64,000 nt of DNA from Bdellovibrionota bacterium (lineage in GTDB: Bacteria > Bdellovibrionota_C > UBA2361 > JAAYZI01), in NCBI GenBank assembly GCA_050950765.1, contig JBMNIF010000002.1, positions 529,454 through 593,453 of the forward strand, in the 5' to 3' direction. Made by a program: the position numbers and the translations under genes. Each line of letters opens with the position of its first letter. Positions within the stretch are counted from its first letter, which is position 1. This document shows positions 5,684 through 57,625 of the stretch, piece after piece. The notes under the pieces are model-generated. The model was given only the letters and a program-made list of their open reading frames with translations, had not been told where the DNA came from and ran no database searches.

Positions 5684-6340
5684 TTAGGATTCGCATTCCT
5701 GCTCGAAGTTAGCACACTCCTTTAAGAGAGTTGCAAGCTCCTTAACTACGGAAGGCTTAAGTTTCTTAAGCACTTCTGCATCAATAGTGCGTAGAGCTTT
5801 TAAGATCTTTACAAAAGGCTGCAGTACATCTTCTGCCACCTCTTCCGCAAACTTATTCGCAGAAGTATCTTTGTTGCCGTCTTTAGGAAAAGCTGACGAT
5901 AGCTTTTTTCCGCAATCCATCAAGGATTCGATTTCAGCCGCGAAGCATTCCCCCATATTTAAAGAGGAAAGCTTTTTAAGCAACATAACGAAGTGGCGAA
6001 TACACTCCAGCAAAGCATCTACAACTTTCCTAGTTGAACTATTTGTAGGCGCTGAGAGAGCGTCTAAAATCGTCCCTCTAAAACCTTGTAGTGCTTCTGC
6101 CCACTTCTCAAAAAGTCCATTCAGAAGAACTCCGCCGTCCTTCTCCTTTTTCCCTTTTTTGAGAAAATCGAGTATACCTTGAAGAGCGCTATTCAGCTCT
6201 TTCTGTGTCACGTTCGGATCTTTCGCTTGTTCAATGATCATTGCGATAGAGACTTTGAACCAACAATCACGTTTGGCAATACGTGCAGCTTTGCGCGCAT
6301 CATCATATGCGCTTTGCCAAGGGGGGGTAGTGATGCTCAT
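5684..6340 (-). CDS. Paralog-family protein (copy 1), unknown function
   Basis: Shares NGLFEKW / VNGLFKAM blocks and the C-terminal ...ES stop context with ORF 6990..7733. Strong AGGAGG RBS. Confidence 0.5.
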   Translation of the reverse strand: MSITTPPWQSAYDDARKAARIAKRDCWFKVSIAMIIEQAKDPNVTQKELNSALQGILDFLKKGKKEKDGGVLLNGLFEKWAEALQGFRGTILDALSAPTNSSTRKVVDALLECIRHFVMLLKKLSSLNMGECFAAEIESLMDCGKKLSSAFPKDGNKDTSANKFAEEVAEDVLQPFVKILKALRTIDAEVLKKLKPSVVKELATLLKECANFEQECES

Positions 6341-6989: not shown

Positions 6990-7733
6990 TTAGGATTCGC
7001 TGGAGTCGTCGTCAGGATCTTCGTAGTCTTCCAATAGATCCTTGAGTCTCGCTTCCGCGTTGCCTGTGGGATCTTCTACCCCATTAGCTTCACGAAGATA
7101 CGCTTCAAGACACAAAACGAAACGAAGCATATCTTCCGAGGCATCTACGAATTTCTTAACTATAGCAGGATCCGCCGTTTTAAACACGCGTTTCTCGCTG
7201 AACAAAGCGCTTAAGAGCCTCTTGAGAGGTTCTACCGTACCTTTTAATTCGGTATCCAGAAGCTTCTTAAGCGAAGTTCCTCCCTGATCGCCTTCGCAGT
7301 TTTCGAAGAAGCTTTTATACAGCTCCCCATGATAATCCAGCAAGCCTTTGATCCTCTTTATTGCACTATTCGTGCAGCCTTCTCTCTCAATTACGATTGA
7401 GAGAGCATAATCGAAGATCTCCAGCACAGCATCTAAGAACTTCTCGACTACTGGAAGAAGGTCAGGCGCATTAAGCGTTTTTTTGTCAGCGAATACAACT
7501 TTCCTGATAATTACGCCGAGCTTCTTCAGCTCTTCCGTCATCGCCTTAAAAAGTCCGTTTACAAGGGCGGTTTCGTTTTCGCTCTTAGCTAACGCTTCGA
7601 GGAAGATTGAAATCAATACTTGCAGAGATTTCGTTAGATCGTACGCAGCTTGAAAAATTCGAGCCTTGTGACACTTACAATTAGGGTCATAAAAACCCTG
7701 CTTTTCGATGCTCATATGAGCACCTCCTTCCAT
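6990..7733 (-). CDS. Paralog-family protein (copy 2), unknown function
   Basis: Paralog of 5684..6340, sharing flanks and internal blocks. Acidic C-terminal tail DPDDDSSES. Confidence 0.5.
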   Translation of the reverse strand: MEGGAHMSIEKQGFYDPNCKCHKARIFQAAYDLTKSLQVLISIFLEALAKSENETALVNGLFKAMTEELKKLGVIIRKVVFADKKTLNAPDLLPVVEKFLDAVLEIFDYALSIVIEREGCTNSAIKRIKGLLDYHGELYKSFFENCEGDQGGTSLKKLLDTELKGTVEPLKRLLSALFSEKRVFKTADPAIVKKFVDASEDMLRFVLCLEAYLREANGVEDPTGNAEARLKDLLEDYEDPDDDSSES

Positions 7734-22650: not shown

Positions 22651-22698
22651 GGTAGAGATAGAGATCGGTAAAAATAGAGGTGGGGTATTTAACTCCCC

Positions 22699-24600: not shown

Positions 24601-24786
24601 TATTATTTAATCGATAACATTACTTTTTCTCGAGCTATTAAGATTATAAATTTAACTCTACTATTTAAGTATTACGTAACACTTACTTCTTAAGATATCT
24701 AAAACTTATTACTAATAAGGTAGAGAGAAGGATTATAAAGTTACTCGCTATCATAATCCTTCTCTGCATTTTTTAATTATTCTTCC

Positions 24787-27700
24787 TTAACCTTGCTTGC
24801 TACGCACAACCCACTCACTTGTCGTTTCCATATAGTCACACCCAGCTATCTTTGTAATATCTCCGCAATTTTCGATCTCAGATTCTGTCATACATACTTT
24901 TTTCTCACCTATGGTAACTTCTTTTTTACCACTTTCACAAACGCACACACACTCACCTTTACTATTTCTTGAAGCAACAAGGCTTTGATGCCCACATTGA
25001 ATTTTTGTCTCATCACATCCGCAAGCGCACTCATCGGCGTAATACCTTTCATCTTCTCCACAGCCGATATTTATTTTAGAATTACCCTTAAGATTTCCAT
25101 TATCATCGTACTTACAGACACAAGTATTGTCTTCTACAATCTCGTTCTCGCCGCAACTTACACACTCTTCATTTTGCATTACAAACCCTGAATTGCAGAT
25201 ACAATCACCTACTTCTTCATCCCATACTGAGTTTTCAGTACACGTCTGACATTCACAATAAGAACCATTCATAACGAGGTGTTGGTTCTCTCCTTGACAG
25301 AAATCTCCTAGGTTTGCAGCACCTGCCCCGTCTTTTTTCTTAGCACGTCCTGTTAATGAGTCTCTATCATAGATACAAGCACACTGCGTATATATAGATG
25401 CAGAACTACTTCCACTATGCGGCACAAGTTCTGTCCCATCAGGGCAAAAATCACAACTACAATTAGTCGTATCTATTAAATATTGCCCCTGCTCATGACA
25501 CTTTTCTTCACTAGTTGTTATATCATCATCACCATCAATCCCAGTTGTACAGTCGCAACCAGTACCATCTTCATTTCCAACAAAAACTGTGCCATCTTCT
25601 GCGCAATCAACACATTCACAAGATGCTTCCTTAAATTGTTTACCTTCATGAGCGCACTTTTCCTTTACAAGCGCTTGAACTTCTTCACTACACTCACAAT
25701 TTAGTGACTTGCTATCAGTTGGTGTTTGAGAATCTTCAAGGGTGTTCGGAGTGCCCGCTCTATAATTACCGTCACAGATACACCCCGACCCATCTTCAGA
25801 TAATCTTTGATTGGGATTAGTAGTGCACGTCACACACGCACACTCTGCATAATCAAAGTATTCATCGTCGTTGTCACATTCTTCTTCGAAGTGTTTTCCA
25901 CCTTCTTCACTATACTTACACTCTTCACAGTTTAACTTTGTTATATCTGAAGACTCACCTAACTTATGATAAGAATCGCACGCACAAGCTTCTACTCCGA
26001 CCCCTCCAGTACTTGTAGTATTCTCTCCGCAAGAGAGGCAGTCACACTTTTCATAATCGAAGTATGTACCTTCAGGACATTTAGTACCATCACTACCAAA
26101 TGCAGCGCCGTCTACGTCTGAAGCATATTTACAAACGCAATCTCCTATCTCTTCACCTTCAGTAGATATAGTTTGATATGGAGTACAACAACTGCACTGA
26201 GTTATACTAAAGTTTCTTGAGTCCTTAATACAGGCTTCGTATTTGGTTTTAGTCTCTCCCTCTGTTATATTACAGGAACAGGTGCTACCTTTTACCGCTA
26301 CACTATCTTCACATTTACAATAAGCAGCGTTACCTTCTCTAATAAACGTACCACCTGTTTTTTCGCATAACTCTTCAAGCGTAGCAATATCAACATTATT
26401 AGGTCCAGCACCGGAGCTATTGCCCTTACCGTCGCCACCGCCGCTACCACCTTTTCCGCACTTTGCAGAATCTGTACAGGTACAACTTAAGCCGTCACCT
26501 TTATAGCCGTTAGTAGTATCACAGACACAAGTTGTACCATTAAAAGTTGCTCCCGTAGCAGTACAACACTTCTCCTCCTTGCAGGAACACGATCCCTTTT
26601 CACTGTAATAACCTTGTGAGTTGTCGCAGACGCAAGTATGGTTACCTTGTGCATCAGTACCTGCCGCATAACCTTTCTTAGAATCACAAACACAGTTCCC
26701 ATTAGCATCTTGGAAGGTATTGGCTATACAAATACACCCTGCTTCTGTTGCTTCTCTAAAATCTTGATTTCGACAAACACAGTTATCTGTCCCTGCTTCA
26801 AACTCATTACTGACACAGGTGCAACTACCATTTATCAGTGAACGATTGTTTTCACAGACACAGTTTCCGCCGTATGCCTTAAAGTATTTATTCTCATCAC
26901 AGACACAGATACCGTCTTTCCTTATATAATTATTACGGCAGACGCAGTTAGGCAGCTTAACAGAAACGCCCTCTATTGTCTCAGTTTTATAACTCAATAC
27001 CTCATTATTCGAACAACTTCCTATACCACCACAATCACAAGTATCTTCGCTAAATGGATTATAACCATGATCCTTACACCAAGCAGAGATCTCTCTTTTT
27101 TGAGCTTCTGTATAATTACATTCACACCTTTCAGTAGCAGAATTGTAAGTTTTATTTCTATCCCTACATTCGCAATCGCAGGTAGCTTTATTAAACTTTA
27201 AACCTCGATCACTACACCATTTTTGCACTGCCGTTTCATTACAAGAGCCGCCACCGCCGCCACCTGCTAGATCTCCAGCAGCTACTCCACCTCCTGTAAT
27301 ACCATCAGAGATATCACAGCTACAGATCTCAGTGTAATACGCCACCTTTTTATCGTAGCAGTATTGTTTAGAATTTGGTGTATTAGCCTCCTCATCATCA
27401 CACTCACAGGCACAGGTATCTGTATTTAACTTACCAAGCCCGTTCTTTGTTATACAATCTTCAGGGGTAAGGGGGCACTCACAAACCATACTCCCCTCTT
27501 CCTCTGTAACTACAAAGTTCTCAGGACAGACACACTCATAATACCCTTTTTTAGTCTCTTTTACCGTCCAAGCTCCACTTCCACAAGAATCACAGGAGCA
27601 GGTCTCTGCGTTAAAGATAGAAGCTCCTTGCCTAGTACAATCATCTTGAGAATCCCTATATTTAGGACATTGACATTCACAATAATACTTCGTCTCTTTT

Positions 27701-29475
27701 TTTTCATTTATAGTTATAGTTTTAGATTTTTTACTAGGTACCTTATTCCCCTTACATCCATTAGGATCACAACTAAGCTCACATGTATATTTATCGTTAT
27801 TTTTAATAAGGTGTGCTTGGAGCATTTTATCTCCATCTAATCCACCTAGCTTTGAAACATCACATTCGCACATACAGTTATCTTGATTAACTTTCTGATG
27901 GTCAGGATCGTAGCAGTTACTATTCTCTTTAAAATATTCTTTTAAAGTATATATTTTGTAACAATCACAACTATCACGTGCCGTTCTTCCCTTTTTAGCT
28001 GGATCGCTACAAGCACAATATAAAGATGAAGAGTTAGCACTTCTCTCAGTGCCTTCAGGACAATCGACACAAGTCCAGTGCCCATCGATTACTTGTACAG
28101 TTTGATTATCTTCACAATCACAATCACAAGTTGGAATTTGGCTTGAAGGTGTCAAGCTTTTACAAAGCCCTTTTTCACATTCGCACCATTCATTTCCTGC
28201 CCCATCACTCTTTTTAACAGAGCCTCGATTACATATTTGACAATTACCGCTGGCATTTTTTACATAATTATCATTACAAACACACTCTAAACCATCTTCA
28301 GAGGCGTGCGCATTAGATCCGCACTGTACGCACTGACAGGCACTATTAACTACTGTTTTACACCCTTCAAAAGTTGCCTCATCAGTAGGTTTAAGATCTG
28401 TTGGTGTAGGATTAGCACTATTGTCGCAACAGATACTATCACCAACCTCCTTCCAAACTAGCTTTGAATAATCGCAGACACAACTGTTATCTTCTGCGCT
28501 ATACTCTTGATTCTCCGCACAGTTATTACAGTAACAGCCGCCACCTGTCTCGTAAGTGCCGACTACGCCTGCACACACAAAGCCACTCCCCTCGATATCA
28601 TAGAGGCATCGACATCCACTCCCTTCTTCATCTGTATACAACACCTCATTTGGTCCACAATTTGTTGTATTATTTACACATGCACAGACTCCACGCTCAT
28701 CTCTAATAGCGACCTGATAGGCGGTATTACAATTAATCAGTTCAGGCTTACAAAGACACTTTCCATCTTCATCCTTTTCACACTCTAATAACGGCGGCAT
28801 ATTTGATTTCGTACTAAGCTCTCTATAAGCAGAAGCTTTAGCTGTAAAAACAAAATCAGGTATCCACGGTGAAAGTGTTTTATACTTGGTGTGGACTGTC
28901 ACTTCTATTGGGATTCTAGTTAGACCGTCTCTTAACGATTTCGATTCCTCAGTAGCTTCACCCTCAAGAGCGTACTTAGCTCCTTGAACGGGGAGTTTAA
29001 TCTCTATTATTCCTTTATCTGTTGCTTTTCCTTGCTCGTCATCTCTTACAGCTAATAGCTGCACAACCCCTTTGTCATTAACCTTTCTCTCTTCAATCTC
29101 TTTATCGTTTAGAGTTCCGATTAAAAAACCCTCCATATACTTATAAGCACGGTCTCTAATGCTTATCATCGCAGGTGCATTTTCTTGAATACCAACTTCA
29201 CTACACTCTTCCTGACCAGTATTCATATTCACTACGCAAAGATCTTTGACCACATCTTCAAGATCCGGCACAACAGCTGCCAGTTGTGCAGCCTGTTCTG
29301 CTGCATTTTGGATGGTGGTCTTAGCATAAAGCGCAAATGAAAAGTCTATAATTCCTAAAATTAGGATTAGGAATATCGGTATTCCTATGGCGAACTCAAC
29401 CATCGTTGCACCACAATTTCTTACGTTGTTATTTTTAATAGTAGTCATAATAATTACCTCATTAAATACCAACAC
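24787..29475 (-). CDS. Giant (1562 aa) TadE-like pseudopilin-N-terminus protein made of cysteine-rich CxC repeats
   Basis: N-terminus GATMVEFAIGIPIFLILILGIIDFSFALY (TadE-like). About 1300 aa of repeating C-x-C-x(10-16)-C units (CVCDENKY.., CVCENN.., CTCVSN.., CVCRNQ..). Gly-rich linkers (GGGGGGS). Start overlaps the stop of the upstream tadE-like gene. Confidence 0.6.
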   Translation of the reverse strand: MLVFNEVIIMTTIKNNNVRNCGATMVEFAIGIPIFLILILGIIDFSFALYAKTTIQNAAEQAAQLAAVVPDLEDVVKDLCVVNMNTGQEECSEVGIQENAPAMISIRDRAYKYMEGFLIGTLNDKEIEERKVNDKGVVQLLAVRDDEQGKATDKGIIEIKLPVQGAKYALEGEATEESKSLRDGLTRIPIEVTVHTKYKTLSPWIPDFVFTAKASAYRELSTKSNMPPLLECEKDEDGKCLCKPELINCNTAYQVAIRDERGVCACVNNTTNCGPNEVLYTDEEGSGCRCLYDIEGSGFVCAGVVGTYETGGGCYCNNCAENQEYSAEDNSCVCDYSKLVWKEVGDSICCDNSANPTPTDLKPTDEATFEGCKTVVNSACQCVQCGSNAHASEDGLECVCNDNYVKNASGNCQICNRGSVKKSDGAGNEWCECEKGLCKSLTPSSQIPTCDCDCEDNQTVQVIDGHWTCVDCPEGTERSANSSSLYCACSDPAKKGRTARDSCDCYKIYTLKEYFKENSNCYDPDHQKVNQDNCMCECDVSKLGGLDGDKMLQAHLIKNNDKYTCELSCDPNGCKGNKVPSKKSKTITINEKKETKYYCECQCPKYRDSQDDCTRQGASIFNAETCSCDSCGSGAWTVKETKKGYYECVCPENFVVTEEEGSMVCECPLTPEDCITKNGLGKLNTDTCACECDDEEANTPNSKQYCYDKKVAYYTEICSCDISDGITGGGVAAGDLAGGGGGGSCNETAVQKWCSDRGLKFNKATCDCECRDRNKTYNSATERCECNYTEAQKREISAWCKDHGYNPFSEDTCDCGGIGSCSNNEVLSYKTETIEGVSVKLPNCVCRNNYIRKDGICVCDENKYFKAYGGNCVCENNRSLINGSCTCVSNEFEAGTDNCVCRNQDFREATEAGCICIANTFQDANGNCVCDSKKGYAAGTDAQGNHTCVCDNSQGYYSEKGSCSCKEEKCCTATGATFNGTTCVCDTTNGYKGDGLSCTCTDSAKCGKGGSGGGDGKGNSSGAGPNNVDIATLEELCEKTGGTFIREGNAAYCKCEDSVAVKGSTCSCNITEGETKTKYEACIKDSRNFSITQCSCCTPYQTISTEGEEIGDCVCKYASDVDGAAFGSDGTKCPEGTYFDYEKCDCLSCGENTTSTGGVGVEACACDSYHKLGESSDITKLNCEECKYSEEGGKHFEEECDNDDEYFDYAECACVTCTTNPNQRLSEDGSGCICDGNYRAGTPNTLEDSQTPTDSKSLNCECSEEVQALVKEKCAHEGKQFKEASCECVDCAEDGTVFVGNEDGTGCDCTTGIDGDDDITTSEEKCHEQGQYLIDTTNCSCDFCPDGTELVPHSGSSSASIYTQCACIYDRDSLTGRAKKKDGAGAANLGDFCQGENQHLVMNGSYCECQTCTENSVWDEEVGDCICNSGFVMQNEECVSCGENEIVEDNTCVCKYDDNGNLKGNSKINIGCGEDERYYADECACGCDETKIQCGHQSLVASRNSKGECVCVCESGKKEVTIGEKKVCMTESEIENCGDITKIAGCDYMETTSEWVVRSKQG

Positions 29476-36956: not shown

Positions 36957-39900
36957 ATGCAGAAGTTTACCTTAAGAACCTTGAAATTAGTTGTGCTGTT
37001 TAGCTTTTTCTGTGGCAGTCTGGCAGGTGCGGAAACTTTTTTGCCAACCACTCAAAATTATAACTATAATTTCAACATCCTAAACAACTTATCAACACCG
37101 CCTACTGCACAAAACTTTAATATTAAAAACTTCTCTCTCTTCTCTACCTTAAAAAAATCACTCCCCTTTAGAAGAGAGTTCTTTGGAAATCCTCCCCCTT
37201 ATCTAGCAGCGCAAGTAACCTCCATCTCTATGGGCTACTTTCACGCCTGTGCTATTGTAGGAGGGCGTCTCTATTGTTGGGGGCTTAACTCCTCCGGTCA
37301 ACTCGGGATTAACAGCACTGACACCACAACAACTCCAACTTTAACTTACGACCCTAGCACAACCTCTTTTACAGGTTTATTAGGTGGTCAAGGTGTCTCT
37401 TCTGTTTCTGCTAATGGTTATAACACCTGCGCTATCAACGCAGACGGTAAACTTTACTGTTGGGGAGAAAATGACTCTGGTCAAGTCGGGAATGGAACTC
37501 TAGGATTTGATTGTAAGTATCCAGTATTAATTGAAGATCCAAGTACACTTTCTTGTAGTGGTCTTCTAGGTTCAGAAACAGTTATCGCCGTTTCAGTAGG
37601 TGCTTCGCCCAACGACACTCCTGAAGGAGAGAGCTCCGGTAGAACTCACGTTTGCGCTATAAATGCAGATGATAAACTTTACTGTTGGGGAGATAACACC
37701 TTCGGACAATTAGGCGACGGACAAAGCGGAGGGTCTTTACCGCGTCTTGTAGGGGATAGCGGAACTTTAAATGGAAGAGGTGTTGTTCAAGTTTCAGCAG
37801 GATACAGTTTTACCTGTGCTATCAATACAGAGAGTCTCCTTTTTTGTTGGGGCAAAAACGATTACGGACAGTTGGGGATTTATTCAACAGAAAATACCAC
37901 CTCCCCCACACCTATATATAATGCAGATCCAGAAAAAGTTGGTGGACTTGGAACTGGAAACGATCCAGCGGTTATGTCAGTTTCAGCAGGTACAACTCAC
38001 ACCTGTGCCATAGAGAGCGGATATCTTTTCTGTTGGGGAGATGGTAGTTATGGAGCGCTTGGAAATGGTGATGGAACAGATAGAAGTTTTCCAGTCGCTA
38101 TCAATAAAGGATCTCCACCAGGTCAATTAGACGGAAGTATTGTTCTATCTACCTCTTCAGGATCTGGTTTTACCTGCGCTATCAACGAGATCGGTGAAAT
38201 TTATTGCTGGGGGAAAAATACTGATAAAAAACTACTCGGGATTAGTGGAGTAGATACTAGATTTCCCCAGCTTGTGGCAGGTTCAGATAGTAATCCCAAT
38301 CCTGGCTTACTAGGCACATATACTGTAAATGCCGTTTCTTGTTCAAACTCCGGTCCCTCCTATCAATCGATCTGCGGCATAAACTCACAACATAATCTTT
38401 ATTGCTGGGGAGATAGTAACTTTGGTCAATTAGGACAAAACTCTACCACTACCAATACAACACCGACACAAACACTCTTTAATGAAGACTCCACTTGTAA
38501 CGGTATCGATGATGATGGTGATGGATTAACTGATGAAGATTACGTTTCTGTATCTTGTAACACAGGGCTACACGGTTTATGCGCAGCAGGAACAACATCT
38601 TGTAACGCCGGAAGTGTAGTTTGTAATCAGACAAATTCTCCTACAACTGAGATCGCTTGTAATAATATCGATGATGACTGTGACGGTATAACTGATACTG
38701 ATGCTGCAGGTTACGGAGCTGCTTGTAATAACGGGCTACTCGGTGCGTGTTACAAAACAGGCACGATGTCAGTTTGTGATGGAGGAGTTTTAACGTGCTC
38801 TGCTCCAAACGTTGAACCTACAACTGAAGTCGCTTGTAATAATATCGATGATGACTGTGATGGAGTAACTGATACTGATGCTGCAGGTTACGGAGCTGCT
38901 TGCAATAACGGGTTACTCGGTGCGTGTTATAAAACAGGCACGATGTCAGTTTGTGATGGAGGAGTTTTAACGTGCTCTGCTCCAAACGTTGAACCTACAA
39001 CTGAAGTCGCTTGTAATAATATCGATGATGACTGTGATGGAGTAACTGATACTGATGCTGCAGGTTACGGAGATGCTTGTAATAACGGACTACTCGGTGC
39101 GTGTTATAAAACAGGCACGATGTCAGTTTGTGATGGAGGAGTTTTAACGTGCTCTGCTCCAAACGTTGAACCTACAACTGAAGTCGCTTGTAATAATATC
39201 GATGATGACTGTGATGGAGTAACTGATACTGATGCTGCAGGTTACGGAGCTGCTTGTAACAACGGACTACTCGGTGCGTGTTATAAAACAGGCACGATGA
39301 CTCTTTGTGAAGGAGGGGTTTTAACGTGTTCTGCTCCAGATGCAGATCCAGTAAGTGAAATTTGCGGTAACGGCATTGATGATGATTGTGATGGTGAAAC
39401 TGATGAAGATTGCAATGCAGAAACTCCTACCCCTACCCCTCCAGCGCCTTTTGTAGATGCTTGTCCTACCGACCCGAATAAAACTGAAGCAGGAGTTTGC
39501 GGCTGCGGTATAGCCGATAGCGATCATAACAATAACGGCATAATTGATTGCCTTGACCCGAAGTGGCCGACAACAAAAATAGATAGTATCGTTACACCAA
39601 ACACCAAACCTGTCACTCCACGGGTAGATGTAGTAAAGAAAAAGGTCGTCGTTTATATGCAACGTTTTAAACGTGCCGAGCTACTGAAAAAATTACGTAA
39701 CGTAGTTAACTATGCCAAAAAAAATAAAAGGAAAAAAATTACCTTTAGGTATGAAGTTGTTCTAAGACAGGTCTCTACTAAAACAACGTATAAAAGTATC
39801 ACGAAGAAAAAGATTCAATCTCGGATCTCAAAACGTAATAAAGTAATCTTTAAGAAACAGCGGCAAGGAACTTACAAAATTAAGTACAGAGTTAAGATCT

Positions 39901-39971
39901 ATAAGAACGGTAAACTTGCTAAGAACACGAAGTGGAGCGATTCTAAAACTGTTACAGTTTCGAAAAAGTAG
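36957..39971 (+). CDS. Secreted RCC1-repeat protein with MopE-like cysteine repeats and lysine-rich C-terminal tail
   Basis: Signal peptide. About 7 RCC1 blades (YCWG.N..GQLG). Four near-identical 56-aa repeats CNNIDDDCDGVTDTDAAGYGAACNNGLLGACYKTGTMSVCDGGVLTCSAPNVEPTTEVA (CxxxDDDCDG metal-binding-type motif). Basic K-rich C-terminus. Confidence 0.7.
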   Translation: MQKFTLRTLKLVVLFSFFCGSLAGAETFLPTTQNYNYNFNILNNLSTPPTAQNFNIKNFSLFSTLKKSLPFRREFFGNPPPYLAAQVTSISMGYFHACAIVGGRLYCWGLNSSGQLGINSTDTTTTPTLTYDPSTTSFTGLLGGQGVSSVSANGYNTCAINADGKLYCWGENDSGQVGNGTLGFDCKYPVLIEDPSTLSCSGLLGSETVIAVSVGASPNDTPEGESSGRTHVCAINADDKLYCWGDNTFGQLGDGQSGGSLPRLVGDSGTLNGRGVVQVSAGYSFTCAINTESLLFCWGKNDYGQLGIYSTENTTSPTPIYNADPEKVGGLGTGNDPAVMSVSAGTTHTCAIESGYLFCWGDGSYGALGNGDGTDRSFPVAINKGSPPGQLDGSIVLSTSSGSGFTCAINEIGEIYCWGKNTDKKLLGISGVDTRFPQLVAGSDSNPNPGLLGTYTVNAVSCSNSGPSYQSICGINSQHNLYCWGDSNFGQLGQNSTTTNTTPTQTLFNEDSTCNGIDDDGDGLTDEDYVSVSCNTGLHGLCAAGTTSCNAGSVVCNQTNSPTTEIACNNIDDDCDGITDTDAAGYGAACNNGLLGACYKTGTMSVCDGGVLTCSAPNVEPTTEVACNNIDDDCDGVTDTDAAGYGAACNNGLLGACYKTGTMSVCDGGVLTCSAPNVEPTTEVACNNIDDDCDGVTDTDAAGYGDACNNGLLGACYKTGTMSVCDGGVLTCSAPNVEPTTEVACNNIDDDCDGVTDTDAAGYGAACNNGLLGACYKTGTMTLCEGGVLTCSAPDADPVSEICGNGIDDDCDGETDEDCNAETPTPTPPAPFVDACPTDPNKTEAGVCGCGIADSDHNNNGIIDCLDPKWPTTKIDSIVTPNTKPVTPRVDVVKKKVVVYMQRFKRAELLKKLRNVVNYAKKNKRKKITFRYEVVLRQVSTKTTYKSITKKKIQSRISKRNKVIFKKQRQGTYKIKYRVKIYKNGKLAKNTKWSDSKTVTVSKK
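38630..39300. repeat. Four near-identical 168-bp tandem repeats inside the RCC1 protein gene
   Basis: Copies differ by only a few nucleotides at the DNA level. Confidence 0.8.
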
Positions 39972-40086
39972 GTGTATGTTTTTATACACCCTATTTTTTA
40001 AATGTTGGTAGCCTACCCATTCCACTTTTACAGAAATTTATATTTCTATTGAAGTATCTTTGAAAAATAACGAAAAGAGAGTCCAC

Positions 40087-41052
40087 TTAGGAAAGTTCCA
40101 GCAAGTCAGAACCTCCATTAGAATCTGCCTTATCAAAATCTACTTCATTAAGGCTTCCAGCAGGACCTCCATCGCTGCCTCTCGATTCAAGAAAGTCATC
40201 GAGGGATTGGTCTACACGTTCTCCCATTGTTCTATGAAAGTCTTCTTCAGGAACATGTTCAATAAAATTTTCTATCCTTTCTATCCTTTCTTTTAAAGTG
40301 TCTGCTATTTCAGGACCACACTCTTCTGCTAAGCGCTTAATTTCCTTAAGATAAGAAGAAAGGTTCCTAGGATCTCTATCTTTAACTTGTTCTTCAGAGA
40401 TTTTTAAATAATTGTCAATACACCTCTTCCTTACATTTTGGTAAGAATCTTTAAGTAATTGTGCATCATCTTCAGACAATTTAATATTTGCCTTTTCATA
40501 AGAGAACTTAATATCTTCTATTAAGCTATCGGCAAAAGCTACATCATCTTTATTTACTCCCTGCTTTTCTACTATTTGTTGCAAATGATACTTTAAAGAG
40601 GAAATTGAGTTCTCACAACAACGCTGTAAAAATTCATCGAGCAGCTCACTTTGATATTTTTTAATTTTTTCAATTGCTCCACTTGCAAACGAGACACTAC
40701 CACTTGCAGCGTACTCCTCCAAACATTGCAAATAGTGCTGAATACCGTTTCTTCGTGCTGAGAGTAAACAAGATTGCAGCTCTCCAAGCTCTTCTGCACT
40801 AAACAGATTAGTATTAGAAGAACCAACTTTAGCTTTACGCATCTCATCAAAGACCTTATCTGCTCTAGCAACAGCCCCATACTTGGCATAAAATTTTAAG
40901 CGCCACAGGAAAAAATCTTTGGAGACACTTGGACTGAGAAAAGACGCTTCTTCTAGTGGAGGACTTTCGGAACCCTCTTTAGGATCTATGCCTTGACGAT
41001 CTTGACGAGTTCGTTTTTGATATGACGGATTATCTGATTTTATTGGCGGCAT
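40087..41052 (-). CDS. Paralog-family B protein (copy 1), unknown function
   Basis: Pro/Ser-rich N-terminus. Shares LQSCLLSARRNGIQHYLQC and YLKISEEQVKDRDPRNLSSYLKEIKRLAEECG blocks with 41305..42135. Confidence 0.45.
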   Translation of the reverse strand: MPPIKSDNPSYQKRTRQDRQGIDPKEGSESPPLEEASFLSPSVSKDFFLWRLKFYAKYGAVARADKVFDEMRKAKVGSSNTNLFSAEELGELQSCLLSARRNGIQHYLQCLEEYAASGSVSFASGAIEKIKKYQSELLDEFLQRCCENSISSLKYHLQQIVEKQGVNKDDVAFADSLIEDIKFSYEKANIKLSEDDAQLLKDSYQNVRKRCIDNYLKISEEQVKDRDPRNLSSYLKEIKRLAEECGPEIADTLKERIERIENFIEHVPEEDFHRTMGERVDQSLDDFLESRGSDGGPAGSLNEVDFDKADSNGGSDLLELS

Positions 41053-41089
41053 TAAAAACTTATTTTTACTACTTTACTACAACTATCTG

Positions 41090-41118
41090 ATTTTAGCCCG
41101 CCCCTCCTACCTCGTCAA
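41090..41118 (-). promoter_or_regulatory. Sigma70-like promoter TTGACG-N17-TAAAAT for paralog B copy 1
   Basis: Near-consensus -35/-10 with 17-nt spacer about 40 nt upstream of the ATG. The whole roughly 135-bp upstream block is near-identical to 42140..42270. Confidence 0.55.
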
Positions 41119-41304
41119 TTTTACTAAAAAATAATGCTTTATCAGACAGTTGCGCACAAAAAAGCGCTGTTAAAAACGGTCTCGCCCTCTTTTTCTTAGC
41201 TTCTAAGCCTAAAGCTAGAGGCTGAAGAAAAGCATCAAAGGCACTTTTTAAAACGCTTTGCTTTTAAAAAGTGTATCTCTGTATCTATCCACTCGTCCTA
41301 TCCT

Positions 41305-42135
41305 TTATTTTAAAGTGTCTACTATTTTAAGACCACATTCTTCTGCTAAGCGCTTAATTTCCTCAAGATAAGGGGAAAGGTTCCTAGAATCTCCATCTTT
41401 AACTTGTTCTTCAGAGATTTTTAAATAAATTTCAATACTCTTTTGCCTTACACTTTTGTAAGAATCTTTAAGGAATTGTGCGACCTCTTCAGGCATTTCA
41501 CGCTTTGCATATACATAGTAGAGCTCGAGATCATTTTTAAATTGATCAGCATCAGCGATATACGCTTTTAATACATTAACAACATCTAGATCGATATTTA
41601 GATCTATTTCATACTTTTTTAATTTGGCGGCATAATTTTTTAATATTTCAACATCACTTAGTTTTACTATCTTGTTCAATTTATACTTAGCAGAAGGAAT
41701 CGCTACCGCCAAACATTCCCTAAAAAGTTCATCAACCCACTCCTGAGTAGCAGGAGCCTTTTCAGTACCCAGAACTTTTTCATATTGTGTAATTTTATTA
41801 AGTGTTTTTAGTGCAAGCCCAACATCACCACCTTGAGCGTACTCCTTAAAGCATTGCAGCAAGTGCTGAATACCGTTTTTTCGTGCTGAGAGTAAACAAG
41901 ATTGCAGTTTTTCGAGCTCTTCTGCACTAAGTAGATCGTGCTCACGTAATAAGTCAAAGTACCTATGAGTCCTATCAACATTTCCGATCTTGGCATAAAA
42001 TTTTAAGCGAGCTAATAGATCATCTACATTAGGTAAAGACGCTTCCTCTAATGGAGAACTTTCGGGGGAACTCCCTTGAGAGGGATTAGAACCTTGAGAG
42101 TGGTTAGGAGGTGTGGAGCTTAAGTTTATCGACAT
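41305..42135 (-). CDS. Paralog-family B protein (copy 2), unknown function
   Basis: Paralog of 40087..41052 with the same conserved blocks. Confidence 0.45.
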   Translation of the reverse strand: MSINLSSTPPNHSQGSNPSQGSSPESSPLEEASLPNVDDLLARLKFYAKIGNVDRTHRYFDLLREHDLLSAEELEKLQSCLLSARKNGIQHLLQCFKEYAQGGDVGLALKTLNKITQYEKVLGTEKAPATQEWVDELFRECLAVAIPSAKYKLNKIVKLSDVEILKNYAAKLKKYEIDLNIDLDVVNVLKAYIADADQFKNDLELYYVYAKREMPEEVAQFLKDSYKSVRQKSIEIYLKISEEQVKDGDSRNLSPYLEEIKRLAEECGLKIVDTLK

Positions 42136-42166
42136 TATTAAAACTTCGTTTTACTACAACTATCTG

Positions 42167-42195
42167 ATTTTAGCCCGCCCCTCCTACCTCGTCAA
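42167..42195 (-). promoter_or_regulatory. Sigma70-like promoter TTGACG-N17-TAAAAT for paralog B copy 2
   Basis: Identical to the promoter at 41090..41118. Confidence 0.55.
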
Positions 42196-42274
42196 TTTTA
42201 CTAAAAAATAATGCTTTATCAGACAGTTACGCACAAAAAAGCGCTGTTAAAAACGGTCTCGCCCTCTCTTCCCA

Positions 42275-43375
42275 TTAAACATTAAAGAGGAACTCTACAA
42301 CATCACCGTCTTCCATCACGTAATCTTTTCCCTCTGTGCGTAACACACCCGCTGTGCGACACGCTGCCACACTTTTGTATTGGAGATAATCTTCATACTT
42401 AATGACCTGTGCGCGGATAAAGCCACGTTCGAAATCAGTATGAATCACACCGGCAGCTTGTGGAGCCTTCCACCCTTTTTCTATCGTCCAAGCACGCACC
42501 TCTTTCGGACCTGCTGTAAAAAAACTTTGCAAACCGAGGGTGTCGTATCCGATCCTCGTTAAGCCTTGTAAGGCGCTCTCTTTTAAACCGTATTCCTGTA
42601 AAAGCTCTGCCGCTTCTTGATCTGAAAGTCCGATCATATCCTCTTCGATCTTAGCGCAGATCGTAACACACCCAGCCTTAGACTTTTCAGCGTGTGCCTT
42701 AACAGCCTTAACATAACTGTTCTCTTTATTGATCTCATCCTCTCCGATATTCATAGCGTAAACTACACGTTTATCAGTTAAGAAGGAGGACTGCTTTAAA
42801 AAGAATTCGAAGTCGGCGTCATCGCGCTGTCCAAATGAAGATACGGGATGACCTGTATTTAAGTGTTCAACTAAAGCATTAACAATCTCCACTAGTGGTA
42901 GCAATTTTTTGTCGCCTTTGGCTTGCTTCTGCACCCGCTCAAGTTGTCTTTCGATACTCTGCAGATCAGCTAAGATTAACTCCGTTTCAATCACCTCAAT
43001 ATCTCGTAACGGATCAACACTACCATCAACATGAACTATATTTTCATCATCAAAACACCTGACTACATGCAAAATAGCATTAGCTTCTCTGATATTTGCT
43101 AAAAACTTATTTCCCAAACCTTCACCACGACTAGCACCTTTAACAAGCCCTGCGATATCTACAAAATCAACTGTGGCATAAATAGTTTTTTGTGGTTTTA
43201 CGAACTCACTTATTAGATCAATACGAGGGTCTTTTAGAGGAACCGTTGCTTTATTCGGTTCTATCGTACAAAAAGGATAGTTAGCGCTCTCTGCATTTTG
43301 CGCTCTTGTTAAAGCATTAAAAATCGTTGATTTTCCAACATTCGGCAGTCCAACAATTCCGATATTTAGTCCCAT
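42275..43375 (-). CDS. ychF: Ribosome-binding ATPase YchF
   Basis: [19 protein letters not shown]-loop, C-terminal TGS domain. 366 aa. Confidence 0.9.
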
Positions 43376-45489: not shown

Positions 45490-45909
45490 ATGAACCTTCT
45501 TTTATTAGCTATGTCTTCAACTTTTATTTTAGTAGGTAGCGCGCTTTCTCAAAATAACTCGTACGATAAATACGGCAACAAAACAGGTTCTTATCACACG
45601 AACTCAAGTGGTGACATCACTTCCTATAATAAATACGGAAGTAAGATCAAAACTTATAACAAAACTTCCGATGGCTATAATATCTACGATAAGTATGGGA
45701 GTAAAAGCGGAACACTCAGAAAAACAACAAACGGATATAACACTTACGACAAATACGGTAGCAGAACAGGTAGCTTCAAAACAGATTCGAACGGTACTAC
45801 TACACACTATGATAAATATGGAAATAAAACAGGCACTTTTAAAAAAGATTCAACAGGTCGCATAACTCATTACGATAAATACGGACATAAAATTAAAAGC
45901 TATAAGTGA
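45490..45909 (+). CDS. Small secreted protein built of about 20-aa YDKYG tandem repeats
   Basis: Signal peptide, then 6-7 repeats of YDKYGxKxGxxKxxxxGxxTx. Confidence 0.5.
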   Translation: MNLLLLAMSSTFILVGSALSQNNSYDKYGNKTGSYHTNSSGDITSYNKYGSKIKTYNKTSDGYNIYDKYGSKSGTLRKTTNGYNTYDKYGSRTGSFKTDSNGTTTHYDKYGNKTGTFKKDSTGRITHYDKYGHKIKSYK

Positions 45910-46035
45910 ATACCTTACGGCGTAAAGATATGCTTATGATAAAAAAGGGGTGGGTGCTGCTTAGGCTTTTTTTGAATAATTTTTTAGATAAGAATCCTGC
46001 ACAATTGATTGATGCTAAATTTATGGAGTTTTATT

Positions 46036-47070
46036 ATGCATAAAAAAATCGTTAGTTTATTTTCAGGAGCAGGTGGCTTGGATAAAGGCTTTGAAAAAGC
46101 CGGATTTGATATTGTATGGGCAAATGAATTTGATCCTACAATTTGGGAAACTTTTGAACACAACTTCCCTAACACCTATCTAGACAAAAGAAGCATACGG
46201 GATGTTCCGTCAAATGATATTCCGGAGTGTATTGGTATTATTGGTGGACCTCCGTGTCAAAGTTGGTCGGAAGCCGGTTCATTACGAGGCATCAACGACT
46301 CAAGGGGACAACTCTTTTATGAATTCATAAGAACCTTAAGAGATAAAAAACCACTATTCTTTTTAGCTGAAAATGTTGAGGGGATGCTTGCACAAAGACA
46401 TGCGCAAGCTTTAGCCAAGATAAAGTATCTGTTTAAAGAGTCAGGCTATAATCTAAGTTTTAAATTGATTAATGCAAATAATTACAACGTCCCTCAAGAT
46501 AGGAAGCGTGTAATTTTTATAGGATATAGAGATGATTTAAATTTAACTTTTGAATTTCCAAAAGAATCTAACTACAAACCTGTTCTGCAAGATGCCATTT
46601 GGGATTTAAAAGATTCAGCGATACCAGCGAAAGAAAAGAATTACACGAATGGAACAAAATGTATTGTTCCTAATCATGAATATATGATCGGTGGATTTTC
46701 AACGATATATATGTCAAGAAACCGAGTTAGGGCTTGGGATGAACCGTCTTTTACAATTCAAGCAGGCGGCAGGCACGCCCCCATACATCCACAAGCACCA
46801 AAGATGACATTCATTGAACAAAATAAACGTGAATTTGTAAAAGGAAAAGAGGACTTGTATCGTAGGCTATCGTTACGTGAATGTGCGAGAATTCAAACTT
46901 TCCCAGATGATTTTATCTTTAAATATGACAATCTGATAAATGGTTACAAGATGGTTGGAAATGCTGTGCCTGTAAACATGGCGTACATTCTCGCAACTAA
47001 AATAATGCAAGATCTGTCAGCAATCTTAAATTTTGAAGATATACAGGAAAAGAGATCGGTTAATTTTTAA
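46036..47070 (+). CDS. DNA (cytosine-5)-methyltransferase
   Basis: [13 protein letters not shown] (motif I), GGPPCQSWS (motif IV PCQ), ENVEG (motif VI), C-terminal QTFPDDF. The ORF track start at 46009 probably over-extends. ATG at 46036 has a GGAG RBS. Confidence 0.8.
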
Positions 47071-47785
47071 TGGCTAAAACCTCTGCTCTTTGAGCGCCTT
47101 TTAGATCTCTAATGGCATAGAGGGTGATTGTTGAACTTACGCCCCGCTTTCTCAAATCCTTAACATATTGCAGAACCTTTTCTTGGTCGCCACGCAGCAC
47201 ATCCTTAAGACACCAACCTACCCCTTTTCGTACGAGATCCTCCTTGTCTTTAAGTAAGTTTTCACATAACGCCAAGGCAGGCTTAGTGAACTTACCACTC
47301 TCGCCACATTTACGAGTAAAAGCTACTACACTTGCTCGACGCTTCCACATATTTTTAGACCTGTTCCAGTTGCTAATCAATTTCAAGACCTCTTGGGGAT
47401 ACCTATTAAGAAGGGGTTGTAATACATCGATGCAAAAATCATCAATAGTAGACCAACTATTAAAATAGTTTAAAGCTCTATCTAAAAAAGCTAAGTGATC
47501 TACGCCGAGAGAATCGATATTAGTTTGTAAGATAAAATTTCCTGCTAGAACTGTTTCCTCTACTCTATCACGATAAAAAAGAAGTGCTAACGCCACACTG
47601 TCTTTGCAAGAAAGCGCACTAATGCGGCGTTTGTATGATTTAAGAATCCGGTCACGCACGGAGGTCTTCACACCGTAAGAACGATACCCGTCGTACTTAT
47701 GATACCTTGCGCTATCTTGAGCTACTTTTTTATCAGCAGCACAAAGCAACTCATTCTTAATCTCTTGATATAAACTTTTTATCAC
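47060..47785 (-). CDS. AlkD-like DNA alkylation repair (HEAT-like repeat) protein, putative
   Basis: About 240 aa helical-repeat protein. [18 protein letters not shown] resembles AlkC/AlkD family tryptophan motifs. Confidence 0.4.
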
Positions 47786-47837
47786 TTTAGTTCCTTAGTG
47801 AGTCGGATAGTTGAATATCTTAGTCTGATCTAATGAT

Positions 47838-47960
47838 AGCAACGGAGTGATTATAACAGAACTTTTTTATCACCACCCTTGTAGCAACGGAGTGGTTACA
47901 ACAGATCTTTTTTATCACCACCCTTGTAGCAACGGAGTGATTATAACAGAACTTGTCTTA
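47838..47960. repeat. 45-bp tandem repeat, about 2.7 copies
   Basis: Unit agcaacggagtgattataacagaacttttttatcaccacccttgt. Confidence 0.75.
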
Positions 47961-47996
47961 CCGACACCTACTTAATATCGATGCCAAAATAAAAGT

Positions 47997-48085
47997 TGGC
48001 GGAGAGAGGGGGATTCGAACCCCCGGTAGGGGTAACCTACACACGCTTTCCAAGCGTGCGCCTTCAGCCACTCGGCCATCTCTCC
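47997..48085 (-). tRNA. tRNA-Ser (anticodon GGA)
   Basis: Reverse complement gives GGAGAGATGGCCGAGTGG..., a long variable arm, anticodon loop TTGGAAA and an encoded CCA. Confidence 0.8.
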
Positions 48086-48169
48086 ATTAAGACGGTAACG
48101 GTGCAACTCTATCGACGAGCACCTTTTTTAAAAACAGATAAAAAACCATCTTTCAAGGTGTAAAGAGAA

Positions 48170-48256
48170 CGGAGAGGAAGAGATTCGAACTCTCGGTACA
48201 GTTTCCCGTACACACACTTAGCAGGCGTGCGCCTTCAGCCACTCGGCCACCTCTCC
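48170..48256 (-). tRNA. tRNA-Ser (anticodon GCT)
   Basis: Reverse complement gives GGAGAGGTGGCCGAGTGG..., anticodon loop CTGCTAA and a long variable arm. Confidence 0.8.
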
Positions 48257-48360
48257 AAATCAGAATACCTTTCTCTCAAAAAAGGCTCTTCTTGGTTTTT
48301 ATCACTTTTTTATAGCATAAAAAATAATATGTTTAATAATATCAATTGATAAACAACAAT

Positions 48361-48447
48361 CGGTGGGAAAGGGATTCGAACCCCCGGACCCCTTTCGAGA
48401 TCTCTGGTTTTCAAGACCAGCGCCTTCAACCACTCGGCCATCCCACC
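48361..48447 (-). tRNA. tRNA-Ser (anticodon TGA)
   Basis: Reverse complement gives GGTGGGATGGCCGAGTGG..., anticodon loop CTTGAAA and a long variable arm. Confidence 0.8.
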
Positions 48448-48728
48448 ATATTTTAAACGCTATAAGGTGCGTAGAGTAGGCAGAAACGGTAAAAATGGCA
48501 AGTCTCTAAACGCTTTTTCCTAATATAGTTATAAGTTTTAGTTAAAGCTTTTAATTCACTAGCTAGAATAAAAATCGCACGCGGCTCTAAACGCTTTTTC
48601 CTAATACTCCTAACTACTTTTCAAAAGAGATCACCTTTAAAGCATCTACTTTGTAACGTTTTTTATGCTCTAAAATATTTCTTCAAAAGACTCCCAAAAA
48701 ATCTTCCTTTGTGTAAAAATGCGCTTGT

Positions 48729-48805
<77 letters not shown>

Positions 48806-49612: not shown

Positions 49613-49880
49613 GATTTTACCTCATCCATGAATAGATAACTCCGAGTGGTACTGCATCAAAGAAACTGCGCTTCACAACTAGCCCCGTCCTTAGGCATTA
49701 TAAAAATGCGTCTATACAATCCTGACGCAGAGAATCCATTCTAAGTTTAATTGTCGTCCAAGCTACAAATATCCTTTAGTGGTTTTTTTAAATTTGTAAG
49801 AAAATTCCTAAAAAATATAAAATAGGTAACAAAATCAGGGTGTTGCACTACGCATTTTTTACACTTTTTGCTATGGAGCG

Positions 49881-50075
49881 CCCTCTCTAAGAAGGTAAAA
49901 GGTAGTGACTGTGTGATTGATATTAGTGAGAATGTTTTTACCCCCTTTACTACAAAGCACTTCCTCTAAAAAAGTAAAAAGTAGTTACTGTGCGATTGAT
50001 ATTAGTGAGAATGTTTTTACTCCCTTTGTCACAAAGCACTTCCTCTAAAAAAGTAAAAAGGCATTTACTGTAATT
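49881..50075. repeat. Tandem repeat of about 83 bp, about 2.3 copies
   Basis: Unit ..ctctaa.aa.gtaaaa.gtagt.actgtg.gattgatattagtgagaatgtttttac.ccctt..cacaaagcacttcct. Confidence 0.75.
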
Positions 50076-56566: not shown

Positions 56567-57625
56567 ATGAAATACGAATTCGGAAAAGCGGAAGATGCTT
56601 TAGGAGCAGAACGTTTACAATATCAAAAATTAAGGAAAAGACACTCTAGTTTAAAAAAATGGTCTTTTTTTATATCTCTACTCTTACTTGTCGGCGTCGG
56701 CTACTGGTATTTTTATGTTTCTTCTCAACAACGTTTTCCCAAATTACCAGAGGGATCTTATTTAGGTAGGATTTATGAGATCTTTCCTGATGAGCCCTCA
56801 GGGGTACAATTTTTTGTTGAGAGCTTACCGACGGAGGAATTGCTTTTTTCTTTGCAGCACCCAAAATGGAAACAGCAACGGGTAACAATGGTGCTAGGAG
56901 ATAGTCAAGGCAACTGGTTGCATCCGATAGTTATTGTTGGAAGTGATACGAAGTTAAAGTTTATCGGAAAGAGTAACGGGGGTATCTATCAAGGGAGCGT
57001 AGCAACACAAGATGGGAGTAAAAAAGGGCGTTGGGAGCTCACTATGATCTCATCCCCCGATCACAACGCCCTTGAAGACCTGACTAAACTGGAAGAGTGG
57101 TTAACTTTAAAGTTACAATCTGAACGTCTCTCTCAAGAAATTTTAGCCTCTAAAAGATCGGTTTCTGAACAAAATAAAGAGATCACGAAGTTGACTAATT
57201 TCATCACTGATGTTGATAGCCTTAAAGCTCGTGCTGAAAAAAAGTTTCGTGAAGTTACGGAAAAGATCACTGAGGAGGAAAAGGTTTTAAAGCAGAAAGA
57301 GAAGGAGGCGCAAGTAGTAGAAAATCAACTGGTTTTAGCGCAAGTAGTAACAGACATGGGAAAGTTAGTCTCGTTATCAAGACAAACTCTTGAACGTGAA
57401 AATCGATGGATTGATTCTGTCTTAGGTAGCGCCCTACCCCCACTCGGAGAAGATTTTCAATTAGCTGTTGAACAGGCAAAAAAAATCATCGGTGTAAAAA
57501 AAGCCATCGCCGAAGAGGAGGAGTATATCAATCACCTACGTAGTTTAATGCAGGGCGGAGCGCCGCAAGCTACGCCTCCACCACCACCGACTACTTTTGG
57601 ATCTTTGTGGGGGAATGCGCAATGA
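56567..57625 (+). CDS. Membrane-anchored coiled-coil protein
   Basis: N-terminal TM helix (FFISLLLLVGVGYWYFYV). Long heptad-rich region. C-terminal PPPPPTTFGSLWG. Confidence 0.4.
   Translation: MKYEFGKAEDALGAERLQYQKLRKRHSSLKKWSFFISLLLLVGVGYWYFYVSSQQRFPKLPEGSYLGRIYEIFPDEPSGVQFFVESLPTEELLFSLQHPKWKQQRVTMVLGDSQGNWLHPIVIVGSDTKLKFIGKSNGGIYQGSVATQDGSKKGRWELTMISSPDHNALEDLTKLEEWLTLKLQSERLSQEILASKRSVSEQNKEITKLTNFITDVDSLKARAEKKFREVTEKITEEEKVLKQKEKEAQVVENQLVLAQVVTDMGKLVSLSRQTLERENRWIDSVLGSALPPLGEDFQLAVEQAKKIIGVKKAIAEEEEYINHLRSLMQGGAPQATPPPPPTTFGSLWGNAQ

Follow-up and report, generated by a model that had tools for sequence, protein, structure and literature searches.

A tandem paralog pair with duplicated promoter-like blocks and mosaic coding sequences in a Bdellovibrionota genome

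To characterize a tandem gene pair in an uncultured Bdellovibrionota bacterium, we analyzed a 64,000-nt stretch of its genome (assembly GCA_050950765.1, contig JBMNIF010000002.1, positions 529,454 to 593,453; hereafter, the window). The pair, ORF1 and ORF2, consists of two paralogous open reading frames (ORFs) on the minus strand, each preceded by a nearly identical non-coding block. Our preferred reading, to which we give a probability of about 0.55, is that the block and its gene form a tandem unit whose copies are transcribed in parallel, exchange segments by gene conversion or unequal crossing-over, and encode fast-evolving helical binding scaffolds.

In this mechanism, each copy would be transcribed separately from its own sigma-70-type promoter (A/T tract, TTGACG, 17-nt spacer, TAAAAT) through an AU-rich leader of about 25-32 nt that lacks a Shine-Dalgarno (SD) motif, as is normal for this genome. 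Because both copies have the same putative promoter, the two genes would be expressed in parallel. The block and two coding tracts would owe their near-identity to segmental gene conversion or unequal crossing-over that took place recently, between copies and between strains, and the same exchange would reshuffle heads, middles and tails. The variable middle and tails would set partner specificity and change fast under weak or diversifying selection.

Mosaic divergence of the tandem copies

The unit repeats at about 1.08 kb (a 120-nt promoter-bearing block plus a gene), and two tandem copies of it lie between ychF and a gene with RCC1 repeats. In window coordinates, the components are:

40087..41052, minus strand: ORF1 (ACOX2O_04590 in the NCBI metagenome-assembled genome, MAG), 321 aa, with a predicted disordered N-terminus, an all-helical core and a disordered acidic C-terminal tail (tail X)
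41305..42135, minus strand: ORF2 (ACOX2O_04595 in the NCBI MAG), 276 aa, paralog of ORF1, C-terminus ...DTLK, TAA at 41305-41307
41073..41193, minus strand: upstream block copy 1, before ORF1
42150..42270, minus strand: upstream block copy 2, before ORF2, beginning 5 nt past the ychF stop codon

Both proteins are identical to NCBI MAG entries located on a 1.25-Mb contig. An initial reading of the sequence alone (the sequence-only reading) had described tandem paralogs with common blocks but divergent N-termini and middles. Both ORFs and the quoted blocks were indeed present, and the proteins shared 46% identity (BLASTP, E=2e-64), with divergent N-termini and middles. The two block copies differed at 2 of 121 nt, or at 1 of 118 nt by a second alignment (98-99% identity). 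The earlier figure of 98% over 135 bp was slightly generous, as the last 15-20 nt ahead of each ATG differ between the copies by a 9-nt indel and substitutions. A 46-nt core of the block occurred exactly twice in the window and in none of 100 shuffles, so the duplication is far above chance. Block search and tblastn over the 64 kb yielded no additional copy of either the block or the genes.

We then compared synonymous divergence along the genes. The proportion of synonymous differences (pS) between ORF1 and ORF2 was 0.11 in residues 195-254 and 0.63 in residues 20-90 (Fisher p=3.6e-6), and it varied by region as follows:

ORF1 residues 188-247, C-terminal module: pS ~0.1
ORF1 residues 88-117, ARRNGIQ block: pS ~0.15
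N-terminal third: pS 0.5-0.84
Middle: pS 0.4-0.57

The non-coding block, with 2 differences in 121 nt, was the youngest tract (p=0.025 against the C-terminal synonymous sites). Inside the conserved coding blocks, nonsynonymous divergence (dN) was about equal to synonymous divergence (dS), indicating that these blocks are young rather than constrained in amino-acid sequence. The sequence-only reading had called them long conserved blocks; being equally conserved at synonymous sites, they give no evidence of amino-acid constraint and are better described as young recombination tracts. These substitution statistics show that the near-identity reflects recombination and not constraint at the amino-acid level. 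Across the genes, dN/dS was 0.69-0.96. The point estimate for tail X was about 1.7, to which we attach no significance as it comes from only ~3.5 synonymous differences. Indels in the N-terminal region were in frame. Judged from these values, constraint on the coding regions is weak.

Relatives of the pair were rare. When 5.8 billion clusters were searched by word index, ORF1, ORF2 and one more relative, P0002, were returned; P0004 was added by an exhaustive HMMER search, which covered 1.84 billion representatives. All four alleles come from this Bdellovibrionota MAG lineage, with P0002 and P0004 encoded on short contigs from a single ENA project. No confirmed match emerged when genome and metagenome contigs were scanned for protein patterns, nor any from a search with an alignment of the ~58-aa module described below, and with ORF2 as query only the two proteins of the window came back. 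No significant family was assigned to ORF1 or ORF2 by Pfam, NCBIfam or PADLOC. The pair is therefore not a known housekeeping family, in line with the sequence-only reading. Two JGI metagenome assemblies carry the same locus without any difference across the paralog region, so the ORF2 stop codon is reproducible.

The two ENA contigs, L001 and L004, proved to be chimeric relative to the window. In L001, the 5' block and the head are of ORF1 type (94-98% nt identity) and the middle is novel; the 3' module is again of ORF1 type (98-100%), and the short tail and the 3' region are of ORF2 type (100%). As this contig bears the promoter block at both ends, the array is tandem in that strain too. L004 (ENA ERZ28614939, 883 nt) combines the novel middle of L001 (96.5% nt identity) with an ORF1-type acidic tail and an ORF1-type 3' flank. 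By position, L001 is the counterpart of ORF2 and L004 that of ORF1; these positional counterparts differ far more across the two strains (54% aa) than the common tracts do (2-8% nt). Heterogeneous pS, a near-identical block and chimeric alleles together make up the mosaic pattern of gene conversion. A simple model of the tandem-duplication junction did not fit: it predicts that the tail region past ORF2 is repeated ahead of block copy 2, yet homology ends at 42270, within the 5-nt gap after ychF, and we rejected it on that ground.

The same alleles carry signs of decay. Past the ORF2 stop codon, we found a remnant of the reading frame:

41248..41304, minus strand: in-frame remnant of 18 codons, RIGRVDRYRDTLFKSKAF followed by a stop, matching the intact short C-terminal tail of P0002 (tail Y)

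The TAA of ORF2 is GAA in the L001 homolog. Because the 18 codons after the TAA still read as tail Y, ORF2 is a recently truncated copy. L004 has a 13-nt frameshifting deletion relative to L001, around position 419, which may be either a pseudogene mutation or an assembly error. These lesions raise a serious rival to our reading, namely that the genes are dispensable orphans that have been decaying neutrally since duplication, and that the apparent diversification is relaxed constraint with occasional recombination and with no effector or binding role. The dN/dS range, the codon differences that separate L001 from L004 (8 nonsynonymous, 1 synonymous), the premature stop ahead of an intact-reading tail, the frameshift, and the lack of any family member outside this lineage in our searches all fit decay. 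However, ORFs of 276-321 codons stay open at 40% G+C, across three assemblies and two other samples, and the N-terminal indels preserve the frame. Moreover, a helical core is predicted confidently from just 3 sequences, the module architecture is common to distant proteins, and short motifs are conserved within the disordered tails. On balance, we regard decay as unlikely.

The duplicated block and its promoter-like elements

Both copies of the block contain a match to the sigma-70 promoter, flanked by further elements. Read in the orientation of the gene, copy 1 consists of a distal 40 nt (41193-41153, containing GCGC-N8-GCGC), CAACTGTCTGAT, AAAGCATTATTTTTTAGTAAAA, TTGACG, a G-rich 17-nt spacer, TAAAAT and ATCAGATAGTTG:

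41090..41118, minus strand: sigma-70-like match of ORF1, TTGACG 41118-41113, 17-nt spacer, TAAAAT 41095-41090; putative transcription start site ~41083-41086, leader ~30 nt
42167..42195, minus strand: sigma-70-like match of ORF2 with the same hexamers; putative transcription start site ~42160-42163, leader ~25-28 nt
41119..41140, minus strand: A/T-rich tract AAAGCATTATTTTTTAGTAAAA, 22 nt, immediately 5' of the -35 hexamer; counterpart in copy 2 at 42196-42217
41141..41152, minus strand: upstream arm of an inverted repeat, CAACTGTCTGAT, 12 nt, 11/12 complementary; counterpart in copy 2 at 42218-42229
41080..41091, minus strand: downstream arm of the inverted repeat, ATCAGATAGTTG, overlapping the end of the -10 hexamer and the predicted start site; counterpart in copy 2 at 42157-42168

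The hexamers and spacing (TTGACG-17-TAAAAT) match the sigma-70 consensus at 10 of 12 positions in both copies and in L001, with the promoter rules of this phylum assumed. The sequence-only reading had called this a textbook promoter about 40 nt from the start codon. The motif does lie 37 nt (ORF1) and 31 nt (ORF2) upstream of the ATG, measured from the end of the -10 hexamer, but matches of this quality occur at chance frequency: the window had 18 of at least 10/12, Markov shuffles had 20 +/- 4, and a local scan gave 5 where 5.6 were expected. The A/T tract at 41119-41140 is UP-element-like only in its resemblance to the E. coli consensus.

These frequencies speak for another possibility, that the promoter match is fortuitous, that ychF, ORF2 and ORF1 form one operon, and that the block is duplicated intergenic DNA. 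ychF (42275..43375, minus strand) is the upstream neighbour of ORF2, all three genes lie on the same strand with short gaps, and a terminator scan revealed no terminator-like site between ychF and ORF2 or within the block. On the other side, the match is suitably placed relative to both start codons, with optimal 17-nt spacing and the A/T tract upstream, and the hexamers are unchanged in the other strain even though the spacer between them has two changes. The prior chance that a 135-nt block has a match of at least 10/12 in the correct orientation, derived from the window count, is about 2%. We therefore consider a fortuitous match quite improbable.

The other claimed features of the block were less distinctive. 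Neither leader has an SD motif, as had been noted, but of the window's 44 long ORFs, with start codons assigned mechanically, only ~11-17 (roughly one in four to one in three) have an SD-like motif upstream, so that SD-less leaders are ordinary in this genome, which seems to rely little on SD-led initiation. The proposed terminator, a GC hairpin in the block, is GCGC-N8-GCGC, with a 4-bp stem, a T-run in its loop and none after the stem. It lacks the G+C-rich stem of at least 5 bp followed by a T-run that defines an intrinsic terminator, it was negative in the terminator scan, and the block folded only weakly (z-scores -1.1 and -1.3), so this part of the sequence-only reading falls away. A structured-RNA leader was likewise rejected, on fold z-scores of -1.1 to -1.5 and the lack of any Rfam match over 39800-42400 at E<=1. 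Two hairpins lie elsewhere at the locus:

41242..41273, minus strand: AU-rich hairpin of 12-14 bp between ORF2 and block copy 1; z = -1.5, not significant, absent from the terminator scan
39970..39991, both strands: terminator-like hairpin between ORF1 and the convergent RCC1-repeat gene

The AU-rich hairpin could possibly serve as a weak terminator for ORF2.

We compared the two block copies of the window with the two in L001. The -35 hexamer, the upstream arm and the A/T tract were invariant in 4/4 copies, and the -10 hexamer and downstream arm in the 3/3 copies that reach them. Where strains differed, the changes lay in the leader, the spacer or the distal 40 nt. Because the hexamers, the A/T tract and the arms are unchanged in the copies that cover them while the spacer and distal part vary, independent, parallel transcription from a duplicated promoter is plausible.

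The window contains another tandem pair in which identical non-coding DNA stands beside divergent coding sequence. Its ORFs (5684..6340 and 6990..7733, minus strand, within 5509-7894) share 25% protein identity and have no Pfam match, and they are flanked by ~90-nt islands of 97-100% identity (5509-5598/6814-6903 and 6472-6557/7809-7894). The sequence of these islands is unrelated to the block before ORF1 and ORF2. The idea of integron cassettes, with conserved elements between unrelated genes, was rejected: within each pair the neighbours are paralogs, and the element found at one pair is not that of the other.

On another view, in essence that of the sequence-only reading, the block would be kept identical mainly by purifying selection on a regulatory element, with the inverted-repeat arms as operators for a regulator that brackets the promoter, the pair tightly co-regulated and conversion secondary. 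The identity edge coincides with the promoter/leader boundary, the hexamers, the A/T tract and both arms are unchanged in the copies that cover them while spacer and distal part vary, the 12-nt inverted repeat overlaps the predicted start site, and the other pair keeps its islands beside coding sequences of 25% identity. Against this, the block is no better kept between strains (~96%) than the adjoining coding head (~98%), conversion tracts are clearly present inside the coding sequences, an inverted repeat of like quality occurs in 3-5% of random 148-mers, and no regulator gene is found among the adjacent genes. We thus hold regulatory selection to be a possible main cause of the identity, though not the one we favor. 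As a contributor besides recombination, selection on the non-coding element is suggested by the sharp edge of identity between leader and coding sequence together with the ~90-nt islands of the other pair.

The inverted repeat also led us to consider mobile and invertible elements. Its arms are 49 nt apart and bracket the promoter. An invertible promoter was rejected, with arms only 49 nt apart, no recombinase among the neighbours and every copy in the same orientation. Alternatively, the block could be a small dispersed element resembling a miniature inverted-repeat transposable element (MITE), with terminal inverted repeats and an outward promoter, that landed before both genes; the 12-nt imperfect repeat around a ~73-bp core and the sharp delimitation of the block would suit it. 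However, there are just two copies in 64 kb, both at an equal position ahead of a family gene, and in another strain the block again borders a family gene on both sides. The repeat is internal to the conserved block, identity running ~40 nt past the upstream arm, and no direct (target-site) duplication is visible by the arms. Exact-pattern scans of genome, metagenome and viral contig collections gave 0 matches to the block. With no sign, in the window or in those collections, of the dispersed repeat that the sequence-only reading had itself raised as an objection, we consider this origin very improbable.

Predicted helical-repeat proteins

AlphaFold2, run on a 3-sequence alignment, predicted an all-alpha core for ORF1 at residues 45-265, with a predicted local distance difference test score (pLDDT) of ~85-90 across ~50-220, and disorder (pLDDT <50) at residues 1-41 and 270-321. 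The disordered N-termini noted earlier were borne out by this model. Within the disordered tails, two motifs are kept: ES(P/S)PLEEAS near the N-terminus, and GSLNEVDFDxADxxGGSDLLxL, which ends the acidic tail. The core contains the following elements:

40630..40803, minus strand: helical module 1 of ORF1, residues ~84-141, ...LLSARRNGIQHYLQCLEEYAASGSV...; ORF2 counterpart at 41755-41934
40303..40479, minus strand: helical module 2 of ORF1, residues ~192-250, ...LKDSYQNVRKRCIDNYLKISEEQVKDRDPRNLSSYLKEIKRLAEECG; ORF2 counterpart at 41320-41496; youngest coding tract, pS ~0.1
40828..40908, minus strand: helix-turn-helix LKFYAKYGAVARADKVFDEMRKA resembling a pentatricopeptide repeat (PPR), ORF1 residues ~49-75, from a profile search

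The module, a long helix followed by a short helix of ~58 aa in total, is present in two copies each in ORF1 and ORF2. It is shared with two distant, unannotated repeat proteins that do not belong to the PPR matches: P0043 (MCS6894339.1, partial, from a MAG labelled 'Deltaproteobacteria bacterium') and P0033. Common to these and to ORF1 and ORF2 is the pattern L(T/S)xE..L....ARRNGI....(I/L)......A..G.V........(I/L)..YA.E.G, which occurs 3-5 times in P0043. A hidden Markov model built from three units of P0043 matched ORF1 at residues 98-137 and 199-249 and ORF2 at 82-125 and 222-271; the two conserved blocks of the sequence-only reading are therefore two copies of one module. The distant proteins differ from ORF1 and ORF2 in their low identity (~22%) and in having neither disordered tails nor a PPR-like head. 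P0033 adjoins genes for a MoxR-type AAA protein and a VWA protein, a context that ORF1 and ORF2 do not have, and the genomic context of both P0033 and P0043 was uninformative.

The PPR-like segment matched widely but weakly. The profile search also drew ~70 long proteins through profile positions 48-77 alone, and 6/6 of those run through Pfam were multi-repeat PPR proteins. Matches in PDB were two structures, both synthetic PLS-type PPRs. Each PPR unit contributes only ~11 bits to the profile match (positions 48-78). In Pfam, the ORF1 fragment scored 14.6 bits against PPR_2 (PF13041, cut-off 30) and 13.4 against PPR (PF01535, cut-off 25), ORF2 had no PPR match, and instead of a tandem array of 35-aa hairpins we saw a single motif among repeats of ~58 aa. 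By these scores, LKFYAKYGAVARADKVFDEMRKA is one PPR-like hairpin, and membership of the PPR family is unsupported.

As modeled, the products are lineage-restricted, all-alpha proteins with a PPR-like hairpin, at least two ~58-aa modules and disordered termini, and without a signal peptide. From this architecture, it is plausible that they act as modular binding scaffolds, perhaps effector-like. The label 'effector-like' itself found no backing: no Sec-type hydrophobic signal peptide is present in either sequence, no secretion genes lie next to the pair, and no structural match or homolog of the proteins was found. Secretion signals could lie in the disordered N- and C-termini, but disorder is not diagnostic of them. 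An anti-phage defence role was not indicated, the best PADLOC match having E=0.0096 and 13 bits.

Several observations weigh against our reading. Just four alleles underlie the evolutionary picture, and for two of these the contig is shorter than 1.2 kb. The identity edge is sharp at the boundary between leader and coding sequence, and this and the discrete islands around the other pair fit selection on a non-coding element better than random conversion tracts. A dN/dS near 1, the premature stop of ORF2 and the frameshift of L004 also fit the decay of dispensable genes. As for expression, the start sites and the independent transcription were inferred from a 10/12 match that is not enriched in the window, and with no terminator-like site detected by the scan between ychF and ORF2, ychF transcripts may read through. 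The functional part has against it the missing structural match, partner and secretion signal. The earlier view of a diversifying two-gene family in which each gene has its own copy of a promoter-like block was nevertheless upheld.

A bolder version of the reading makes the locus a diversification engine, in which the constant block and the constant 5' and 3' coding tracts would be recombination handles, so that the tandem copies, and copies in other strains, could swap helical modules and tails. The outcome would be variants of a hitherto undescribed binding protein with ~58-aa helical repeats and a PPR-like hairpin, for use against prey or host. The second pair with its ~90-nt islands would then be another case of a genome-wide strategy. 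We hold this bolder version to be highly doubtful.

Relation to known systems and other features of the window

ORF1 and ORF2 are new orphan members of familiar kinds, as proteins with helical repeats and as tandem paralogs that evolve in a concerted or mosaic fashion. For bacterial multigene families, there is a general account of gene conversion and concerted evolution, with homogenisation or antigenic variation as the outcome (PMC8223754). As in concerted evolution of tandem paralogs, the near-identical tracts here span synonymous and non-coding sites, alternate with old divergent tracts and have recombined differently in each strain. Unlike in pilE/pilS or vlsE, there are two full-length copies, each with its own promoter, and no archive of silent cassettes or expression site. 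Cassette-type antigenic variation (pilE/pilS, vlsE, msp2) was rejected, as both ORFs are full-length with the same block and tblastn found no paralog fragments in the window.

PPR proteins are rare in bacteria and occur in host-associated species, as with Llo1404/Llo2643 of Legionella longbeachae (PMC2824747) and RipL of Ralstonia (PMC3878972). LKFYAKYGAVARADKVFDEMRKA resembles the PLS class, matching the plant motif xxMYAKCGxxxxAxKVFDEM, but PPR proteins are built from arrays of 35-aa repeats, whereas here one sub-threshold motif is joined to ~58-aa modules. The nearest general kinds are alpha-helical repeat or solenoid scaffolds (TPR/HEAT-like proteins, designed helical repeats, 14-3-3) and the helical domains of effectors, Legionella SdeC being one example. 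The putative promoter resembles strong sigma-70 promoters with an UP element in placing its hexamers after a 22-nt A/T tract. A literature search for tandem paralogs and effectors of Bdellovibrionota found nothing relevant.

If our reading is true, the locus is a small and clean example of tandem paralogs that are co-expressed while their coding parts reshuffle, in a reduced genome of an uncultured Bdellovibrionota, and it adds an undescribed helical repeat module to the orphan repeat proteins. What look like conserved blocks here are young products of recombination rather than signs of functional constraint. The locus also advises caution, since SD-less leaders and consensus-like promoters are easily over-read in this AT-rich genome. 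The findings would gain weight if the pattern of identical islands beside divergent coding sequence were genome-wide, or if the proteins were delivered to prey or host.

Neighbouring genes identified by family search were YchF, the RCC1/MopE-repeat protein and a membrane protein. The RCC1/MopE-repeat gene (36957..39971, plus strand, 1004 aa) is convergent with ORF1 and contains four MopE-like tandem repeats of 177 nt (38640-39470) with ~96% identity. The window differs from the JGI contigs L002 and L003 by just 4 single-nucleotide polymorphisms, all within this gene. G+C content is 36-37% in the paralog region and 40% in the genome; being only slightly low, it led us to drop the idea of a genomic island.

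Elsewhere in the window, repeats of several kinds were observed. Three tRNA-Ser genes (47997-48448) and a tRNA-Arg gene (48729-48805) lie beside a 3 x 45-nt tandem repeat (47837-47971), the whole spanning 47837-48805, next to genes for a C-5 cytosine methylase (46009..47070) and DNA alkylation repair (47060..47785). Five imperfect ~42-nt tandem copies (…GCGGTTTTAGGAGG…AAAAA) occupy 56273-56483, upstream of an ORF at 56567..57625. Non-coding tandem duplications are found at 18319-18474 (2 x 78 nt, 96% identity) and 49856-50013 (2 x 79 nt, 80% identity). At 45490-45909, a 139-aa ORF consists of YDKYG(N/S)K(T/S)G-type repeats along nearly its whole length and belongs to no Pfam family. Finally, a TadE-like protein of 1562 aa and two VWA-domain proteins are encoded at 20853-29475, in a context resembling that of a Tad pilus.

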